64,000 bases of DNA, taken from the IMG/VR virus record IMGVR_UViG_2695420523_000009, positions 12,534-76,533 of that record; one strand, given 5' to 3'. The first letter of the stretch is position 1, and each line of letters starts with the position of its first letter. Source of the stretch: a virus. Lineage: Duplodnaviria > Heunggongvirae > Uroviricota > Caudoviricetes. Of the stretch, positions 17,923 through 49,413 are shown piece by piece. The translations under genes and the position numbers were made by a program. The notes beneath the pieces are model-generated. The model searched no databases. It was given only the letters and a program-made list of their open reading frames with translations, and had not been told where the DNA came from.

Positions 17923-18102
17923 ATGAAGATTTTTATTGAATACTTGTTACTCATCGTTTCAATAGCTTTTGTCATCGACTGCATTTTCACTGGTGTCATT
18001 CGTAAAGTCTTTTCCCCGGTGCACGACGTAGTCATAAACGCTTTGGCTATCGTGCTCGTATTTAATTCAGCATTTGATGTAATCAAAGAGGTGGCAGCAT
18101 GA
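17923..18102 (+). CDS. hypothetical small hydrophobic protein
   Basis: 59 aa ORF (below ORF-track cutoff) whose stop overlaps the next start (ATGA); hydrophobic. Confidence 0.35.
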   Translation: MKIFIEYLLLIVSIAFVIDCIFTGVIRKVFSPVHDVVINALAIVLVFNSAFDVIKEVAA

Positions 18103-18434
18103 AGGCCATCCCATTCGCTCTGTTGTTCCTTTCCTCGATCGTTGTGGCCGACACCACTGTTTATCAGTGTGAAATGTCTGTAGCCGACGTTAAGAATGGC
18201 GCTCTTACCGACGTCATAAAAGCACCATATGGAGCGATGGTCGTAGACAGCGGCGACCAGTTCTATGTTGTGCGTGACGATCGAGTATTGTCATCCCCAT
18301 ATCTCACAAACCGTAATGGCAAATTAACCGGCGTCGGAGAAGACCACTTCGTATACAACAAATACAAGGGCTTCTATGGCGTGCACGCTTCTCAGCAAAG
18401 CTACCTTTTCGATGACTGCAAGGAGGTTGGATAA
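18099..18434 (+). CDS. hypothetical secreted protein (signal peptide)
   Basis: N-terminal MKAIPFALLFLSSIVVA signal-peptide-like segment; RBS AAAGAGG. Confidence 0.55.
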   Translation: MKAIPFALLFLSSIVVADTTVYQCEMSVADVKNGALTDVIKAPYGAMVVDSGDQFYVVRDDRVLSSPYLTNRNGKLTGVGEDHFVYNKYKGFYGVHASQQSYLFDDCKEVG

Positions 18435-18646
18435 TGGCATTAACACTGGCAGGTCTGGAAATCGAGAAAACAAGCGGATACTGGCGTGCTAAGGGTTTCA
18501 AGCAGCCTGGCATTCTTGAGCGTCTGGAACGTGAAGATGGGTATATCGTCCACCAGCGACGTGAATGGCGTATGTACGATCCAGAAACAGGAAAACTGAC
18601 TACAAAAGCCGGAACACTTTGGGGTCTGTTGAAGAAAATACACTAA
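18434..18646 (+). CDS. hypothetical protein
   Basis: 70 aa, start overlaps upstream stop (translational coupling). Confidence 0.45.
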   Translation: MALTLAGLEIEKTSGYWRAKGFKQPGILERLEREDGYIVHQRREWRMYDPETGKLTTKAGTLWGLLKKIH

Positions 18647-18655
18647 TAGCACCAA

Positions 18656-19129
18656 CCACTGCGGTGAGTAGCCAGCTCACCGCATTCGTATCAGCTCATT
18701 ATCCACTGTGGTCTGCAGTCCTCTCTTCCTACATATCTGCTAACCACTGTAGCGAGTAGACAGCCTTTCATTCGCATCAAACAACCACTATGGTGAGTAT
18801 TGGAGTGAGATGTCCAGCGGGTATCCACTATGGTGAGTAAGCCTTTGCTGTTTTCAGTGGATATCCACTCGCCACAGTGGATACGCTCAAAGATGAGGGC
18901 GACAACAACCACTATAGACAGTGAATTTTCCAAGATACCCAGTGACCACTAACCTCGCAGCCCTTGTTTCATCAGTGTTAGTGATCACTAACATTTAATT
19001 CAGTATTTGCATTCTACTGCCTACAGTGGTTATCAACAGATAACGATACTCATTATAGTGGATAGCGAATTACAGATATAAGTAAGGCTCACTACAGTGG
19101 ATAGTGAGCCTTACTACTAACTACAGTGG
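18656..19129. repeat. iteron-like repeat array downstream of repA (incA-like)
   Basis: About 11 copies of CCACT(A/G)T(G/A)G / CTA(C/T)AGTGG cores (e.g. 18703, 18745, 18785, 18825, 18909, 19021, 19053, 19092, 19121) in two orientations at 30-47 bp spacing. Confidence 0.65.
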
Positions 19130-19134
19130 TTGGG

Positions 19135-20190
19135 CTATTTGCGAGTCTTTGCCTTGCGCAACTCTTCGAGAAGCGCCAGTTCTTCTTTACTCAACATGAC
19201 CATTTTGCCTTCTTTTTCGTCAGGCACAACGTCGATAATGTCATCTTGATTCTCATCTGGGAGGCTATATTCCGTCTCATCATTATCGATTTTTGTTGAT
19301 ATTTGTGCCTGGCGTAACTTTGGCCGCCTATAGTGGATGACGAAGTAGACCGAGTTTCCGCGCTTAACTTCCGTGTAATCGAGATATCCTATCTCTCGCA
19401 GCTGTTCCATAGCCTTTCTTACCGTCGCATTCTGAGTAATAGTGCGACTTGTCAGATTAAGTCTGGCGCGTAAACGGGCTAGTGATATTGGTGCCGGATC
19501 AGGCGGCAAACTTTCAATAAAAGTATAAAGCGCCTGAGCGGATTCTTTTCTTGAGAGTTCGTTTATAGCCCGGAGTTGCAGAAGAACCTTTTTGTCGAAC
19601 TGGTAGAGTTCGAAAATCTTGGGATCTGCTTTCAGTTCGACCGTATCGTGCTTGACACTATATTTTGCCGTTTGCACAAGATGCGTTACGTAAAACTCAT
19701 CAGAGCCTTTGCTACGGAACGAGATGGTATTTGTGGCAATACGGCTTAGCGAACTGTCCAGGCGTTTGCGTAACTTCGCTGATGACCTGGCGGTCGGAAT
19801 GCCACACAGTCTTACAAACTCAACGAACGGCAACGTGACAGTATCGCCAACGACCTTGTGTTTGGCAAACGCGTGGATTATTCCCACCCACGTTTTAAAG
19901 TCGTTATCCATATCAAGCCGAAGGCCAGAGATCCTTATGTCTTCGTACCCTTCGGCTTTTGCCAGAGACAGCTGTTTGAGTTCAGCAGAGGCATCCATAG
20001 AGACCATTTGCCCCTTTCTTCCTCTGGATGTCGATTTCAGCGTCGGAACGAAGAGGCCCAGACGCATCAAAGCAACAGGCTGAACAGTGTTATTAGTGTT
20101 AGGAACCAACGTAACAACTTCGCCTGTCTTTTTATCTGTTTCTGAAAATGCTTCAACGATCGCTATGTTTTTATTGCCGTTTTCGCTCAT
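19135..20190 (-). CDS. repA: plasmid-type replication initiator, RepA-like (iteron-binding; RepFIB/P1 RepA family suspected)
   Basis: 351 aa; N-terminal [17 protein letters not shown] motif recalled from RepFIB/P1-type RepA; flanked on both sides by iteron arrays. Confidence 0.75.
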
Positions 20191-20236
20191 TCCAAATGTC
20201 TCTTGTTATTCGACGGCTTTGGTGGCCTTTGCTGAT

Positions 20237-20350
20237 TACAGTGGATAGTAGCACTCATCACAGCGGTTATCCTACCGTCTATAGTGGTTTTTCTCCTCTC
20301 TATAGTGGTTGCTTTGCTCCCTATAGTGGATTATTCGCTCTCTATAGTGG
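20237..20350. repeat. iteron array A (21-bp periodicity)
   Basis: CTATAGTGG cores at 20279, 20300, 20321, 20342 (exactly 21 bp apart) plus two degenerate copies upstream. Confidence 0.75.
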
Positions 20351-20399
20351 ATATCGATCATGTCTGAAGGCAGATGGCACAACGGTTTGAGGTGGGCGG

Positions 20400-20521
20400 G
20401 GATCTTATTGGGTCTTTATGGGTCTCTTTGGTTCTCTTTGTGATCTGAATTACTGGATCGGGCCTGTGGATAAAAATCAGAGGATTTCAAGAACAGGTAA
20501 CTCTACTCTTCTGTGGATATT
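20400..20521. promoter_or_regulatory. origin module A: GATC-containing 13-mer-like repeats plus DnaA boxes
   Basis: GATC at 20401, 20442, 20456; tandem GGTCTTTATG-like 10-mers; DnaA box TGTGGATAA at 20465-20473 and TGTGGATAT at 20512-20520. Confidence 0.65.
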
Positions 20522-20636
20522 TAAGGACATAAGAATCATGACTAAGAGTAGAGTTTAAAATATATCTATGTATATCAGTATGTTAATGAAGAATTAAGTC
20601 ATTAAGTTATCCATAAAAGACAATGTGCTCTACTCT

Positions 20637-20731
20637 CTACAGTGGATATATACAGCTCTCCAGAGTGGTTGTTTTACTCTTCATAGCGGTTATTCAGCTC
20701 TCTACAGAGGTTTCTTTGCTCTCCATAGTGG
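20637..20731. repeat. iteron array B (about 21-bp periodicity)
   Basis: Five copies of CTACAGTGG / CCAGAGTGG / CATAGCGG / CTACAGAGG / CCATAGTGG at 21-23 bp spacing. Confidence 0.7.
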
Positions 20732-20759
20732 ATGGCAACACCCTTTCAGACCAGTAACC

Positions 20760-20846
20760 GCAACGGCTAGAGGCGATCGGGGATCTCTTTGGATCTTCTA
20801 TTTGATCTTACTTGGGATCTCTTATTTGGATCTATCCAGTGGATAA
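20760..20846. promoter_or_regulatory. origin module B: oriC-like 13-mer DNA-unwinding element with 6 GATC sites and a DnaA-box-like site
   Basis: GATC at 20775, 20782, 20792, 20804, 20816, 20829; GATCTCTTATTTG-type repeats match the oriC 13-mer consensus GATCTnTTnTTTT; AGTGGATAA at 20838-20846. Confidence 0.65.
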
Positions 20847-20933
20847 CTGGGATAAGTAAAACAGGCAAATGCAGATTAAGGTATGCCTAATGAGTTATCG
20901 TAGCATCGGCCAATAACTACTGAAAAAACGATT

Positions 20934-21578
20934 ATGGATCTAAAACGCACGCGCTGGGTTCGTCGTCTTGAGGACGGCTCCTACACTATCGAATCAAATT
21001 CCAACCTGAATAAGCAGAAGTTACTTTGTGATATCTGCGGTATAGCGGCGAAGTGCCCGATCTACGAAACCAGAATTAAACTTGATAAGGCTGGTGTGAA
21101 CTTTCATTTGAATAGTTGTATCAGGTACGTTCCATTGCTCGCATTTCGTAAACCGATCATCGGATTGGATGCGCCCTACTTCAACACACTCCGTTCAGGT
21201 GTGACGTGGCGAGATCGTTTATCACCAGACAAGCTGATTTGCCTCGTATCCGCAGACACAGGGAAAATCATCCGTTTTGGGAAAGTAGACAAGGTTTACT
21301 CAGGCCCAGTAGACGAAATGTTGCGGAAACACAGCCGGTTTAATCATCTCTGTATGGGTGGTGAGAAAATCGAGAAGGTAGAAGAAGTGATCCGCAAATC
21401 CTACGGACACTTTCTGACCAAAGATAGCCTGCTCACAGCAATCTACATCAGACATGTAAAACGTGAGTTCGACCTCGAATACCACAGCGAAGAAGAGCTT
21501 AACCTTGTTGACCCACGTCCAAAAGCTGGCGTCATAAGCATAAACGCAGCGCGTAAAAAGCCCACTGACGCGCTGTAA
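20934..21578 (+). CDS. hypothetical protein
   Basis: 214 aa ORF; no motif recognised. Confidence 0.5.
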   Translation: MDLKRTRWVRRLEDGSYTIESNSNLNKQKLLCDICGIAAKCPIYETRIKLDKAGVNFHLNSCIRYVPLLAFRKPIIGLDAPYFNTLRSGVTWRDRLSPDKLICLVSADTGKIIRFGKVDKVYSGPVDEMLRKHSRFNHLCMGGEKIEKVEEVIRKSYGHFLTKDSLLTAIYIRHVKREFDLEYHSEEELNLVDPRPKAGVISINAARKKPTDAL

Positions 21579-35967: not shown

Positions 35968-36561
35968 ATGATTGCAGCCGAAAAAATCAAACAGCGAAAG
36001 CGCGACAACTCTCTTCGTGACCTCTGGAGAACACCTGACTGGCTGTTTTCTGCCATTCAACGTTATCTTGGAGTGACATTTGATGTTGACGTTGCCTGCA
36101 ACAAGGACAATGCAAAGCTGCCTAATTTCATAGGCGTTGAGCGTGATGCTTTGAAATCTGAATGGGGACAGCCAGGTACAATTGCCTTCCTCAATCCACC
36201 CTACTCCAAAATCTACCCATGGATTGATGCGGCTATACGTGAGCAGGCTCGCGGAGTTACAACAGTGATGCTAATTCCTCAATCCCTAGATACAAAGTGG
36301 TATGAGCGTGCAACAGAGTGTGCGAATGAGACGATTATTCTGTCTGGTGGCCGCGTAGCGTTTGTCGAGCCTGACGTAAATCTGGGTCAGGTAGAAGTAA
36401 ACATCAACCCAGGTGGCAGTATGCTCGTTGTTTTTCGAGGATTCTGTAAGGACGCTGGGCACTCTATAAGCAAGATCCCTTTGGACGTCATGAAAAGTCT
36501 GGGAGGGTATGATCCTGCGAATGTGATCAGGAAAAAAAGACCATCAAAGAAGGCTGCTTAG
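35968..36561 (+). CDS. DNA N6-adenine methyltransferase (phage Dam-like, orphan)
   Basis: FLNPPYS catalytic motif (NPPY); about 197 aa, typical size of phage orphan Dam-family MTases. Confidence 0.75.
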   Translation: MIAAEKIKQRKRDNSLRDLWRTPDWLFSAIQRYLGVTFDVDVACNKDNAKLPNFIGVERDALKSEWGQPGTIAFLNPPYSKIYPWIDAAIREQARGVTTVMLIPQSLDTKWYERATECANETIILSGGRVAFVEPDVNLGQVEVNINPGGSMLVVFRGFCKDAGHSISKIPLDVMKSLGGYDPANVIRKKRPSKKAA

Positions 36562-38252: not shown

Positions 38253-38290
38253 NNNNNNNNNNNNNNNNNNNNNNNNNNNNNNNNNNNNNN
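38253..38290. other. assembly gap (run of 38 N)
   Basis: Literal N characters in the sequence. Confidence 1.
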
Positions 38291-46121: not shown

Positions 46122-47222
46122 TCACACTGCGCGGAATGCGATTTCGCCAGGTATTACTTCACCTTGCCAATACATTTGGGCAGCAACGCGATCTGCGAGG
46201 TCACGATAAATAGCCGTAAATTCGCTATCTGGACGACTAATAACGGTTGGTGTTCCGTTATCCAGATCTTCACGAAGAGAGATATGAAGTGGCATTTGGC
46301 CTAACAACTGCGTGTTGTATTTCTCGGCCAGTTTCTGTGCGCCACCGGTGCCAAAAATTGGCTCGTGATGACCGCAGTTACTGCAAATATGCACACTCAT
46401 GTTTTCGACGATACCTAGTACCGGCACTTCGACTTTTTCGAACATCACAATGCCTTTCTTCGCATCGATCAGCGCGATGTCTTGCGGCGTAGTTACCACA
46501 ACCGCACCAGTTACAGGAATGTTCTGCGCCAGCGTCAACTGAATATCACCAGTGCCCGGCGGCATATCGAGAACGAGATAGTCCAGATCAGGCCATAGAG
46601 TTTCCTGCAACATCTGCATCAGCGCCTTGCTGGCCATCGGTCCACGCCACACCATTGCATTGTCGTCGGTGACCAGATAACCAATAGAGTTGGTTGCCAG
46701 GCCATGAGACATGATAGGTGCCATGTGAGTACCGTCAGGTGAGGTTGGACGTTGGTTTTCCGCGCCCAGCATGGTTGGAATTGATGGACCATAGATATCG
46801 GCATCCAAAATACCAACTTTCGCACCTTCAGCAGCCAAAGCCAGTGCCAAGTTTACTGCTGTGGACGATTTGCCTACACCGCCCTTGCCTGAGCTTACGG
46901 CGATAATATTCTTAACACCATTAATGCCTGGTTGGTTTTTGACGCGCTTAAGCGTGGCAATGTTGTACGACAGCTTCCAGTCAATAGCCTTTGCGCCAGT
47001 GATACGGAGCAGATCACCACTACATTGCTCTTTCAGGTCTTCAAAAGGCTTATTCCACACGAAAGGCATGATTAGTTCGACATGCAGTGTGTCATCCATC
47101 AACGCAACATGGTGTAACGCTTTAAGCGTAGTCAGGTTGTGTTTCAGGGTTGGGTGCTGAAAATTAGCCAGCGTACCGGCTACCATTGCTCTCAGGGCAT
47201 CCGGCGATTTGGACTCGCTCAT
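46122..47222 (-). CDS. mrp: Fe-S cluster carrier ATPase Mrp/ApbC
   Basis: Protein essentially identical to E. coli Mrp as recalled (GKGGVGKSSTAVNLALALA, CSNCGHHEPIFG); RBS AAGGAG. Confidence 0.95.
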   Translation of the reverse strand: MSESKSPDALRAMVAGTLANFQHPTLKHNLTTLKALHHVALMDDTLHVELIMPFVWNKPFEDLKEQCSGDLLRITGAKAIDWKLSYNIATLKRVKNQPGINGVKNIIAVSSGKGGVGKSSTAVNLALALAAEGAKVGILDADIYGPSIPTMLGAENQRPTSPDGTHMAPIMSHGLATNSIGYLVTDDNAMVWRGPMASKALMQMLQETLWPDLDYLVLDMPPGTGDIQLTLAQNIPVTGAVVVTTPQDIALIDAKKGIVMFEKVEVPVLGIVENMSVHICSNCGHHEPIFGTGGAQKLAEKYNTQLLGQMPLHISLREDLDNGTPTVISRPDSEFTAIYRDLADRVAAQMYWQGEVIPGEIAFRAV

Positions 47223-47379
47223 CCCGTCTCCTTTATTTTAATTTGCGCAATTGTCGCCTTGTAGTGTACTCCAGCTGCGACATTTAATCATTTATGAGAA
47301 ATGCTGTTATCACATGGCAGACATAAGGCCATTTTGTTACTATCAAGCCCCTTTTCACTACAAAGAAGTAATGCCTACT

Positions 47380-49413
47380 ATGACCCAAGTCGCGAAGAAA
47401 ATTCTGGTGACGTGCGCGCTGCCGTACGCTAACGGCTCAATCCACCTCGGCCATATGCTGGAGCACATCCAGGCTGATGTCTGGGTTCGTTACCAGCGAA
47501 TGCGCGGCCACGAGGTTAATTTCATCTGTGCCGACGATGCCCACGGTACGCCGATCATGCTGAAAGCACAGCAACTTGGTATCACACCGGAGCAGATGAT
47601 TGGCGAAATGAGTCAGGAACACCAGACTGATTTCGCAGGCTTTAACATCAGCTATGACAACTATCACTCGACGCACAGCGAAGAGAACCGTCAGTTGTCT
47701 GAGCTTATCTATACTCGCCTGAAAGAGAACGGTTTTATTAAAAATCGCACTATCTCTCAGTTGTACGACCCGGAAAAAGGCATGTTCCTGCCGGATCGTT
47801 TTGTGAAAGGCACCTGCCCGAAATGTAAAGCGCCAGATCAATACGGCGATAACTGTGAAGTTTGCGGCGCGACCTACAGCCCGACTGAACTGATCGAGCC
47901 GAAATCGGTGGTTTCTGGTGCTACCCCGGTAATGCGTGATTCTGAACACTTCTTCTTTGATCTGCCCTCTTTCAGCGAAATGTTGCAGGCATGGACCCGC
48001 AGCGGTGCGTTGCAGGAGCAGGTGGCAAACAAAATGCAGGAGTGGTTTGAATCTGGTCTGCAACAGTGGGATATCTCCCGCGACGCACCTTACTTCGGTT
48101 TTGAAATTCCGAACGCGCCGGGCAAATATTTCTACGTCTGGCTGGACGCACCGATTGGCTACATGGGTTCCTTCAAGAATCTGTGCGACAAACGCGGCGA
48201 CACTACCAGCTTCGACGAATACTGGAAGAAAGACTCCACCGCCGAGCTGTACCACTTCATCGGTAAAGATATCGTTTACTTCCACAGCCTGTTCTGGCCT
48301 GCCATGCTGGAAGGCAGCAACTTCCGCAAGCCGACCAACCTGTTTGTTCATGGCTATGTGACGGTGAACGGCGCGAAGATGTCTAAGTCTCGCGGTACCT
48401 TTATTAAAGCCAGCACCTGGCTGAATCATTTTGACGCTGACAGCCTGCGTTACTACTACACTGCGAAACTCTCTTCGCGCATTGATGATATCGATCTCAA
48501 CCTGGAGGATTTCGTTCAGCGCGTGAATGCCGATATCGTGAACAAAGTGGTGAATCTGGCGTCCCGTAACGCGGGCTTTATCAATAAGCGTTTTGACGGT
48601 GTGCTGGCAGGCGAACTGGCTGACCCGCAACTGTACAAAACCTTTACTGATGCCGCTGAAGTGATTGGTGAAGCATGGGAAAGCCGCGAATTTGGTAAAG
48701 CGATTCGTGAAATCATGGCGCTGGCTGATCTGGCTAACCGCTATGTCGATGAACAGGCTCCGTGGGTGGTGGCGAAGCAGGAAGGACGCGATGCCGATCT
48801 GCAGGCGATTTGCTCTATGGGCATTAACCTGTTCCGCGTGCTGATGACGTACCTGAAACCGGTACTGCCGAAACTGACTGAACGTGCAGAAGCATTCCTG
48901 AATACAGAACTGACCTGGGATGGTATCCAGCAACCGCTGCTGGGCCATAAAGTGAATCCGTTCAAGGCACTGTATAACCGTATCGATATGAAACAGGTGG
49001 AAGCACTGGTGGAAGCATCCAAAGAAGAAGTGAAAGCCACAGCTGCACCGGTAACTGGCCCACTGGCTGACGACCCGATTCAGGAAACCATCACCTTTGA
49101 CGACTTCGCCAAAGTTGACCTGCGTGTGGCGCTGATTGAAAACGCGGAGTTTGTCGAAGGTTCTGACAAACTGCTGCGCCTGACGCTGGATCTCGGTGGT
49201 GAAAAGCGTAATGTCTTCTCAGGCATCCGTTCCGCTTATCCAGATCCACAGGCACTGATTGGTCGTCACACCATTATGGTGGCTAACCTGGCTCCGCGTA
49301 AAATGCGCTTCGGTATCTCTGAAGGCATGGTGATGGCTGCTGGCCCCGGCGGGAAAGATATCTTCCTGTTAAGCCCGGATGCCGGTGCTAAACCAGGCCA
49401 TCAGGTTAAGTAA
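47380..49413 (+). CDS. metG: methionyl-tRNA synthetase
   Basis: From [26 protein letters not shown] (HIGH motif) through KMSKS and the C-terminal tRNA-binding domain, collinear and near-identical to E. coli MetG (677 aa); start set to the internal ATG 47380. Confidence 0.97.

Follow-up and report, generated by a model that had tools for sequence, protein, structure and literature searches.

A P1/RepFIB-family plasmid-maintenance replicon with a tandemly doubled origin unit in an SSU5/pMT1-type phage-plasmid

We analyzed a 64,000-nucleotide stretch of viral DNA (Caudoviricetes; the window) and identified the locus surrounding its repA gene as the replicon by which a known SSU5/pMT1-type phage-plasmid is maintained as a plasmid; it is close to the replicon of phage P1. 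The main observation is already known biology, and the tandem doubling of the origin is its sole less familiar feature. Our sequence comparisons make it quite probable that this is a theta-type, iteron-controlled maintenance replicon of the P1/RepFIB family, in which the unit distal to repA serves as the origin and the proximal unit acts mainly as an operator and control element.

We compared the window to sequenced phages and plasmids. Escherichia phage Cyrano is 99.3% identical to the window and has the same gene neighborhood, and Salmonella phage SSU5 is 83% identical. There are 475 matching plasmid records. Circular, non-mobilizable plasmids of ∼100-125 kb from E. coli and Shigella, typed as IncFIB, reach up to 99.8% identity, and the closest of these are ∼109 kb in size. 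The same element with its SSU5-like backbone is seen both as a phage (Cyrano) and as an extrachromosomal circular plasmid, as expected from an earlier note on this DNA, which had called it a phage-plasmid and suggested replicon typing. PLSDB/MOB-suite indeed returned IncFIB for a near-identical E. coli plasmid, and also for pMT1, pHCM2, and an Enterobacter plasmid. The SSU5 supergroup is a recognized group of phage-plasmids (PMC7969092), and SSU5 (IncFIB) rep genes are reportedly part of plasmid typing tools (bioRxiv 10.1101/2025.09.12.675607).

The initiator gene is located on the minus strand, and its coding sequence contains one iteron-like site:

19135 to 20190, minus strand: repA, an open reading frame of 351 amino acids encoding a Rep_3 (WH1 + WH2) iteron-binding initiator (PHROG 775)
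19325 to 19343, plus strand: iteron-like site CGCCTATAGTGGATGACGA (12.6 bits in the weight-matrix scan described below), with an exact CTATAGTGG core at 19328

The RepA-like initiator of the earlier note is confirmed by two Pfam domains, Rep3_N (PF01051, 42.2 bits with a cutoff of 22.4) and Rep3_C (PF21205, 22.6 bits with a cutoff of 21.1), both of which exceed the curated gathering thresholds. The protein shares 47.5% identity with P1/P7 RepA over residues 40-293 (E = 1e-71) and 44-45% with the RepA annotated as 'RepFIB' in p0111-type P1-like phages, and it is 91-92% identical to the RepA proteins of pMT1, pHCM2, and SSU5. A C-terminal extension of ∼60 amino acids is absent from P1 RepA in the protein alignment. 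Searches against NCBIfam gave no meaningful match, and a sequence search of the PDB matched no solved structure. The iteron-like site lies at the 3' end of the coding sequence, over the codons of a conserved IHYRRPK motif. It is hardly conceivable that the locus is no replicon at all and that the frame encodes a non-replicative DNA-binding regulator, with the repeats being its operators or chance matches. Only weak, sub-threshold Pfam matches (LytTR and T4_y05I_C) would speak for such a regulator, whereas the Rep3_N and Rep3_C scores and the homology to RepA of P1, an experimentally characterized protein, rule out a non-replicative DNA-binding function. Furthermore, the DNA of the locus is homologous to the annotated P1 oriR, and the elements carrying it assemble as circular, IncFIB-typed plasmids. 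The non-replicon reading is effectively refuted.

We next describe the iterons, which were located with a position weight matrix trained on the 11 upstream iterons only and scanned over the 64-kb window. There are 23 putative sites flanking repA and one in its coding sequence, all within 18649-20738, and only one match of at least 12.5 bits was found in the remaining window. Downstream of repA, 12 sites of at least 11.5 bits are located between 18649 and 19136, six on each strand:

18649 to 19136, both strands: downstream iteron array of 12 iterons (weight-matrix scan), counterpart of P1 incA
starts 18649, 18696, 18737, 18778, 18818, and 18902, minus strand: reverse iterons (weight matrix)
starts 18849, 18869, 19018, 19050, 19089, and 19118, plus strand: forward iterons (weight matrix)

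The presence of this array had been predicted correctly by the earlier note, its number of about 11 iterons becoming 12 by the matrix. In P1 incA, iterons are likewise found in two orientations, but they number nine (6 + 3) rather than 12 (6 + 6). The array is kept in pMT1, pHCM2, and one Enterobacter plasmid, and by analogy with P1 and FIB it probably functions in copy control.

Upstream of repA, an origin unit of ∼375-380 bp is tandemly duplicated, and both modules align end to end, base by base, with the annotated P1 oriR. The proximal module comprises the following elements:

20233 to 20357, plus strand: proximal array of six iterons (starts 20233, 20255, 20276, 20297, 20318, and 20339)
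20397 to 20460, plus strand: proximal GATC-type block, with GATC at 20401, 20442, and 20456 and the other three units reading GGTC, GGTC, and GTTC
20465 to 20473, plus strand: proximal DnaA box TGTGGATAA, matching the consensus at 9/9 positions and aligning with the P1 DnaA box

The distal module contains a second set of the same elements:

20634 to 20738, plus strand: distal array of five iterons (starts 20634, 20657, 20678, 20699, and 20720)
20775 to 20832, plus strand: distal Dam-site array with six GATC (20775, 20782, 20792, 20804, 20816, and 20829)
20838 to 20855, plus strand: distal tandem DnaA boxes, AGTGGATAA (8/9) at 20838 followed by CTGGGATAA (7/9)

All feature coordinates given in the earlier note were found as reported there, including the CTATAGTGG cores at 20279, 20300, 20321, and 20342 and the DnaA box in the proximal module, and the second iteron set (five copies by our count), the six GATC sites in 58 bp, and the DnaA box at 20838 in the distal one. 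The proximal iterons are spaced by 22/21/21/21/21 bp, located 43-167 bp upstream of the repA start codon, and their array directly abuts repA. It shows 82% invariant columns among six diverged relatives. The proximal block carries GATC in three of its six repeat units, a hybrid state that is kept in pMT1, pHCM2, Kluyvera, and Buttiauxella. The distal iterons (spacing 23/21/21/21 bp) align with the five iterons of P1 incC and have position-specific core variants such as CCAGAGTGG, TCATAGCGG, and CTACAGAGG, which are largely kept in relatives. Two plus-strand open reading frames (20148-20390 and 20625-20846) represent read-through of the iteron arrays and are unannotated in all related records.

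The distal GATC cluster is unique in the 64-kb window, where no other 58-bp stretch contains more than three GATC (Poisson P ∼1.5e-7 per site and ∼0.01 for the whole window). The cluster corresponds by homology to the methylated repeats at the core of P1 oriR, by analogy with which it is presumed to form the DNA-unwinding and SeqA-binding region, and the stretch TTGGATCTATCCAGTGGATAA is identical to a P1 oriR segment overlapping the annotated DnaA binding site. The earlier note had further described the GATC repeats as fitting the 13-mer consensus of oriC (GATCTnTTnTTTT). The repeats are there, but their fit is weak: only two of the six distal units and none of the proximal units match at least 9 of the 11 specified positions, a level reached 30 times in the whole window, those two units included, and the distal block is only 59% A+T. 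The likeness to the 13-mer is too weak as stand-alone evidence; what counts is the clustering of GATC sites together with the DNA homology to the Dam-site/DnaA-box segment of P1 oriR.

We investigated how far the duplication extends among relatives. In pMT1, pHCM2, and SSU5, the whole 743-bp two-module region is kept, with ∼80% identity over 98% of its length. The duplication is also found in Enterobacter plasmids and in non-phage plasmids of Pantoea, Rahnella, Erwinia, and Xenorhabdus that encode the same RepA clade. By sequence comparison, it tracks the RepA clade and not the phage backbone. The earlier note had called the doubling unusual, which holds relative to P1 but not within this clade, where duplication is the rule. 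We considered a phage lytic origin as a general explanation for the second module and rejected it, because the module is present in the non-phage Pantoea and Rahnella plasmids and is missing from sister SSU5-like phage-plasmids that carry another RepA. We found no description of a tandem origin duplication, or of iterons in pMT1 or pHCM2, in the open-access literature; the 1998 pMT1 sequence papers are said to have called the replicon RepFIB/P1-like.

A conceptual question raised by the two modules is which of them fires. In 33 of 33 two-array loci, counted at species level, fewer GATC sites follow the proximal array (0-5) than the distal one (5-7), a figure that overstates the number of independent cases, as these loci are phylogenetically related; a second count had a similar outcome (51/52). 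In Moellerella, Phytobacter, Scandinavium, and Pseudescherichia, the proximal iterons are present and the proximal GATC array is absent, while the distal module is complete. Plasmid matches came from a total of 929 records, and the partial ones, including those from Klebsiella and Pantoea, mostly cover the distal segment only. In PhiR41_1 and in the Klebsiella and E. coli sister plasmids, the GATC/DnaA-box half of the single module is the counterpart of the distal module. Homology between the window and PhiR41_1 extends at 98.3% up to 18664 and resumes at 95.5% from 20745. Between these points lies the exchanged cassette, which starts with the first downstream iteron and ends 6 bp beyond the last distal one, and the swap leaves the distal GATC/DnaA-box segment in place as a backbone shared with PhiR41_1. 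Together, GATC retention, the counterpart in sister elements, and the swap breakpoints at the outermost iterons favor the distal module as the actual origin.

The proximal module would then probably be the repA promoter/operator and a control copy. We read it as an operator because one-module relatives carry their single iteron array at the same position relative to repA, as does P1 with incC, where PrepA is located. It does not appear to be a decaying pseudo-origin in the pMT1/SSU5 subgroup, where its conservation equals that of the distal module: among six diverged relatives, invariant columns amount to 82-93% in the proximal module versus 64-82% in the distal one. With this conservation, a perfect DnaA box, and three GATC sites, the proximal module may still fire. 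A true dual origin, at which the same RepA starts replication from both tandem modules, is nonetheless improbable. Both modules do show the full arrangement of P1 oriR, including a DnaA box in each, and both are equally conserved in the six relatives, where the spacer is not; some Pantoea plasmids, with 4-5 GATC sites still in the proximal unit, carry dense GATC arrays in both modules. A Dam-rich module that can be sequestered by SeqA and a Dam-poor one might, for example, fire in different conditions or hosts. Against a dual origin, each of the 33 two-array loci shows some degree of erosion of the proximal GATC array, which several lineages have lost altogether; the distal array is never affected in this way, and only the distal host-factor half is common to the one-module sister elements.

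Very much less probable again is that replication starts from the proximal module, next to repA as in P1, with the distal module as a relic or a purely regulatory set of incA-like iterons. The proximal module adjoins repA as in P1, its iterons are closest to the consensus, with four exact CTATAGTGG cores, and its DnaA box matches at 9/9 positions versus 8/9 for the distal one. However, the distal module retains GATC in six out of six units along with tandem DnaA boxes, and it is the most widely conserved segment, still complete in those lineages that have no proximal GATC array. Methylated GATC sites are reportedly required for P1 origin function, a finding attributed to Abeles and Austin in 1987, which likewise argues against a proximal origin.

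We thus favor the distal unit (20634-20855) as the putative working origin and the proximal unit (20233-20473) as a candidate repA promoter/operator with extra control iterons, which may have residual origin activity. As in P1, RepA monomers would bind the 21-bp-phased iterons and, with host DnaA bound to the flanking boxes, would open the adjacent GATC-rich segment, where Dam methylation and SeqA may act; the homology to P1 predicts that DnaA, Dam, and SeqA are needed. The element has a Dam-family gene of its own (35968-36561). If the models developed for P1 and FIB apply, RepA bound to the 12 downstream iterons would pair with the origin iterons ('handcuffing') and the array would titrate RepA, and both effects would keep the copy number low.

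The two modules are separated by a spacer, which contains several additional sites:

20476 to 20633: inter-module spacer, 70% A+T, the least conserved part (54% invariant columns)
20512 to 20520, plus strand: DnaA-box-like site TGTGGATAT (8/9)
20607 to 20615, minus strand: DnaA-box-like site TTATCCATA (8/9)
20499 to 20510 and 20544 to 20555: perfect 12-bp inverted repeat
20586 to 20559, toward repA: best promoter-like site found

A consensus scan found no convincing sigma-70 promoter near repA within the proximal iterons. Promoter-like sites are not enriched (8 found versus 4.6 ± 2.4 expected), and promoter and terminator matches were not above the shuffled background, so the scan did not place the repA promoter. 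Antisense control is not expected in the P1/RepFIB-type replicon family, and an Rfam scan of 18000-21500 at E values of up to 1 gave no match and no sign of an RNA regulator.

We compared the locus to other iteron replicons. In P1 (oriR/incC-repA-incA; IncY), RepA is homologous and five 21-bp-phased iterons, a Dam-site cluster, and tandem DnaA boxes are shared. The P1 annotation (AF234172) has the same order of incA-like array, repA, iterons, Dam sites, and DnaA boxes, in line with the P1/F-RepFIB-style organization proposed in the earlier note and with the alignment of the modules to P1 oriR. Unlike in P1, the window iteron reads TCTCTATAGTGGTT instead of the CCCTCCAGCACACAT type, the origin unit is doubled, and parAB does not follow repA. 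The pMT1 (pFra) plasmid of Yersinia pestis, pHCM2 of Salmonella Typhi, and SSU5 have the same replicon, flanking genes, and IncFIB type (MOB-suite) and differ in sequence divergence only: their inter-module spacer is different, and their DnaA boxes read TGTGTATAA / TGTGAATAA. The sister phage-plasmids of the SSU5 supergroup (PhiR41_1, the Klebsiella pKpn-type, and an E. coli O169 plasmid) share the backbone, flanking genes, and the GATC/DnaA-box half, but their RepA is 49-51% identical, their iterons are of the CCGCTGACAGCATAC type, and they have one origin module in a much shorter region upstream of rep (∼320 bp in PhiR41_1). In RepFIB of F, P307, and pO157, rep is located between upstream origin iterons (BCDD'D'') and downstream control iterons (E-K), which are the main inhibitory, handcuffing element, and there is a DnaA site (PMC11983097). 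The window locus also has iterons on both sides of rep and a DnaA site, but the p0111/RepFIB-type locus that we compared has a single upstream module. One initiator serving extra clusters or origins is found in RK2 oriV (iteron clusters of 5 + 3 + 1) and in R6K (α, β, and γ origins), and an extra cluster of this type acts in copy control. For RK2, iteron 10 affects copy number (PMC11983097). These initiator subfamilies are unrelated to the window RepA, and the extra clusters are not full origin duplicates equipped with a DnaA box and Dam-site block of their own.

The conserved duplication could represent an undescribed bipartite origin that splits the jobs of P1 incC/oriR, a suggestion we make tentatively and consider rather less likely than not to hold: a Dam-rich, SeqA-sequestrable copy would fire, and a Dam-poor copy would regulate repA and copy number or act as a conditional second origin. 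Such an arrangement would span pMT1, pHCM2, SSU5/Cyrano-type phage-plasmids, and many plasmids of Pantoea, Rahnella, Erwinia, and Xenorhabdus. The breakpoints seen with PhiR41_1 suggest that replicon exchange between phage-plasmids would swap the block bounded by the first and last iterons and join it to a fixed, host factor-binding half of the origin.

It is already established that SSU5/pMT1-type phage-plasmids persist at low copy by means of a P1/RepFIB-family iteron replicon, which plasmid typing includes. Our analysis adds the comparative detail that the RepA lineage including the pMT1 virulence plasmid and pHCM2 has two full origin units, the distal one being the constant, and that replicon swaps in sister phage-plasmids have their breakpoints exactly at the outermost iterons, with one and the same Dam-site/DnaA-box segment being used again. 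If correct, this would be relevant to the control of copy number and incompatibility in these phage-plasmids, a group that is clinically widespread, and to the design of curing or incompatibility cassettes, which would draw on the downstream and proximal arrays. It would also bear on how iteron origins may evolve by duplication and a split of function between the copies.

We compared the RepA encoded in the window to known replication initiators. The ORF matches Pfam Rep3_N (WH1) and Rep3_C (WH2), each above the curated cutoff. In tblastn searches, the window protein has 100% identity to the RepA annotated in Escherichia phage Cyrano, 91% to SSU5 RepA, 47.5% to P1 and P7 RepA (E = 1e-71), and 44-45% to the RepA annotated 'RepFIB' in p0111-type P1-like phages. 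An alignment shows the window RepA to be colinear with P1, pMT1, PhiR41_1, Moellerella, Pantoea and RepFIB-type proteins. Membership of a non-replicative DNA-binding family, which according to the earlier note would have spoken against a replicon, was checked with Pfam and tblastn and is ruled out by the Rep3_N and Rep3_C matches above cutoff and by the homology to P1 RepA. A C-terminal tail of ~60 aa (19135-19317, minus strand; residues about 291-351) is present in SSU5-, pMT1-, Pantoea- and PhiR41-type RepA, whereas P1 and RepFIB-type RepA lack it. The tail runs from acidic to basic and has a sub-threshold Pfam match to T4_y05I_C (E = 0.005); among the aligned proteins, its presence does not correlate with one- or two-module origins. 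In RefSeq phage records H84, H95, H98, H104, H110 and H112 and in PHROG 775, RepA-type initiators, P1 repA included, are named 'replication helicase'. This label is a misnomer; the proteins are Rep_3 iteron-binding initiators.

The 2.8 kb around the replicon share 99.3% identity with phage Cyrano and 83% with phage SSU5, and the replicon region matches 475 plasmid records (Escherichia, Enterobacter, Yersinia, Salmonella, Citrobacter and others), 451 of which are typed as non-mobilizable. The best plasmid matches (up to 99.8%) are mostly circular and ~100-125 kb in size, and all four related plasmid records examined, those of pMT1, pHCM2, an Enterobacter plasmid and a near-identical plasmid of E. 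coli, are typed IncFIB. The neighbors of repA are RecA, SbcCD, RuvC, ribonucleotide reductase, Pol III alpha and similar genes, an identical set to that in Cyrano. The SSU5 supergroup of phage-plasmids includes pMT1 and pHCM2 (PMC7969092), and its rep genes are already listed as IncFIB in replicon-typing databases (bioRxiv 10.1101/2025.09.12.675607). The element is an SSU5-supergroup phage-plasmid. The phage-plasmid lifestyle proposed earlier is thus right and already known, the same DNA being found in phage Cyrano and in circular IncFIB plasmids; the replicon and its family are likewise known, with sequence near-identical to many database records.

The replicon comprises the following features, the iteron core, DnaA boxes and GATC cluster being located by string match:

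18649-19136, both strands: downstream iteron array, past the 3' end of repA
19135-20190, minus strand: repA ORF, 351 aa
19325-19343, plus strand: iteron-like site within repA, containing CTATAGTGGAT, 12.6 bits
20279, 20300, 20321 and 20342, with one copy at 19328 within the repA ORF: exact iteron core CTATAGTGG
20233-20473: proximal module, adjoining repA; six iterons, four with the exact core, a perfect DnaA box, GATC kept in three of six repeat units
20465: proximal DnaA box TGTGGATAA
20499-20510 and 20544-20555: perfect 12-bp inverted repeat AACTCTACTCTT / AAGAGTAGAGTT with a 33-nt loop, in the A+T-rich inter-module spacer
20634-20855: distal module; five iterons with position-specific variants, six GATC, tandem DnaA boxes
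20775-20832: GATC cluster, six sites
20838: distal DnaA box AGTGGATAA

All exact strings of the earlier note (CTATAGTGG, TGTGGATAA, AGTGGATAA and six GATC) were found in place. Repeat finding recovered both upstream arrays with their 21-bp spacing, as had been described, and detected the upstream iteron motif on both strands of the downstream region. A position weight matrix trained on the 11 upstream iterons only located 12 more iterons at 18649-19136, six per strand, and one within repA, with just one match of comparable score in the other ~62 kb of the window. The downstream array is hence real, with 12 iterons in place of the about 11 counted before. The six-GATC cluster is unique, with a maximum of three sites per 58 bp elsewhere in the window (Poisson P about 1.5e-7 per site). 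The specificity of the matrix scan and the unique GATC cluster therefore confirm the observation, which is far beyond chance. The proposed match of the GATC repeats to the oriC 13-mer is weak: of the six distal units, two agree at no fewer than 9 of 11 specified positions, and there are 30 such matches window-wide, those two counted. The site at 19325-19343 overlaps codons of a conserved motif, IHYRRPK, close to where the P1-homologous part of RepA ends, and could be a coincidence or an internal RepA binding site. The window also contains 38 non-ACGT characters in a row (masked or unknown bases) at 38253-38290.

The P1 GenBank record, read in the direction used for the window, lists nine incA iterons (six one way, three the other), then repA, then five incC iterons containing PrepA; beyond these lie five Dam sites and a DnaA binding site, which together with the incC iterons form oriR. 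The order of elements in the window matches this annotation and each window module aligns full-length with P1 oriR, in agreement with the P1-style organization claimed initially. The single origins of PhiR41_1 and of a Klebsiella phage-plasmid can be aligned with each module as well, and all of them share a layout in which five phased iterons are followed by a spacer, GATC repeats and a DnaA box. P1 and the distal module share the identical string TTGGATCTATCCAGTGGATAA, and P1 incA parallels the two-orientation downstream array, which is kept in pMT1, pHCM2 and an Enterobacter plasmid. P1 reportedly depends on Dam and SeqA, as Abeles and Austin in 1987 and Brendler et al. in 1995 are said to have described, and by homology the origin of our element would share this dependence. 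In P1 and FIB replicons, the origin is opened by RepA with DnaA, and its iterons are handcuffed by the downstream ones (PMC11983097; PMC4980987); the same steps would, by analogy, operate here.

P1, the RepFIB/p0111 type and the PhiR41_1 type have a single module, whereas the window has two, offset in register by ~375-380 bp. Plasmids pMT1 and pHCM2 and plasmids of Enterobacter and Citrobacter match 98% of the 743-bp region at ~80% identity, and 335 records cover at least 80% of it. We scanned one genome per species, yielding 80 loci. Two iteron arrays, with a dense distal GATC cluster, accompany RepA relatives as distant as about 62-67% identity (Yersinia, Kluyvera, Buttiauxella, Rahnella, Phytobacter, Franconibacter, Erwinia, Pantoea and Xenorhabdus), and one module is present in a sister clade whose iterons are of the TACAGTGAAC type. 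The double module also occurs on a 207-kb Pantoea plasmid that has parAB adjoining the origin, and therefore the duplication follows the RepA lineage, not the phage backbone. This distribution indicates that the tandem duplication is real, old and conserved. It had been called unusual, which holds relative to P1 but not as a peculiarity of this phage. Moellerella wisconsensis pW1-b (L010 2843-3200) has degenerate proximal iterons and a DnaA box with no GATC block, and a distal part with four perfect iterons, 5 GATC sites and tandem DnaA boxes. In a Tolumonas MAG locus (L056), a complete distal origin lies 650-865 bp upstream of repA, separated from it by about a dozen scattered iterons. Both loci vary the same theme.

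We investigated the contributions of the two modules. Sister SSU5-type phage-plasmids, with a RepA of 49-51% identity and other iterons, have a single module whose GATC and DnaA-box half is the sequence counterpart of the distal module. Against one of them, PhiR41_1 (L003 4264-5968), identity in the flanks is 98.3% and 95.5%, and homology is lost sharply at 18664/18665, at the first downstream iteron, and at 20744/20745, 6 bp past the last distal iteron. The exchanged cassette thus has the first downstream iteron at one end and the last distal iteron at the other, with repA, the proximal module and the spacer in between. With breakpoints at the outermost iterons, it evidently comprises all parts that have to fit RepA, and the Dam-site and DnaA-box segment of the distal module is shared backbone that would work with either initiator. 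With iteron arrays defined independently of GATC content, fewer GATC sites follow the proximal than the distal array in 33/33 loci having exactly two arrays (0-5 versus 5-7); a cruder GATC measure gave the same direction in 51/52, and several lineages lack the proximal GATC block altogether. Because of the sister-module counterpart, the PhiR41_1 breakpoints and these counts, we favor the distal module as the probable origin proper. The proximal array sits, relative to repA, like the single array of one-module relatives and like P1 incC with its promoter, and from this position we read it as a putative repA operator and additional control array. In the pMT1/SSU5 subgroup, the proximal module, its non-GATC units and DnaA box included, is as conserved as the distal one, the A+T-rich spacer is not, and some Pantoea plasmids have dense GATC in both arrays. 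These findings argue against a simple 'relic' and lend some weight to a dual origin, in which both modules act as origins and which we consider improbable next to a distal origin proper. The conserved duplication may constitute a bipartite origin. The inverted repeat in the spacer encloses a DnaA-box-like TGTGGATAT at 20512-20520; pMT1 and pHCM2 keep this element but not the repeat. A consensus promoter scan around the replicon gave no informative result, and no Rfam family matched at the replicon. The accessible literature yielded no account of the doubled origin or of a cassette swap bounded by iterons; the original pMT1 and pHCM2 papers lay outside this search, so we claim no priority for either.

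Elsewhere, a 366-aa P-loop ATPase (46122-47222, minus strand) carries the name 'MinD' in the Cyrano annotation, and PHROGs labels it 'ParA-like partition protein'. Because Pfam places it closest to the Mrp/NUBPL iron-transfer NTPase family (PF10609, E = 2e-102), it may not be the partition ATPase. The examined parts of the window showed no parAB pair. A full-length methionyl-tRNA synthetase gene (47251-49413, plus strand; tRNA-synt_1g, E = 5e-166, with anticodon-binding and tRNA-binding domains) is annotated in Cyrano too. A HicA/HicB toxin-antitoxin pair annotated in Cyrano (L094 9615-10463, window coordinates about equal), ~9 kb from repA, is a plausible plasmid-addiction module. A 197-aa ORF (35968-36561, plus strand) matches the phage-type Dam family (PF05869, E = 3.9e-38), and its Cyrano counterpart is annotated as adenine methyltransferase. 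If its product methylates GATC, the element could methylate the Dam-site arrays of its own origin without host Dam.
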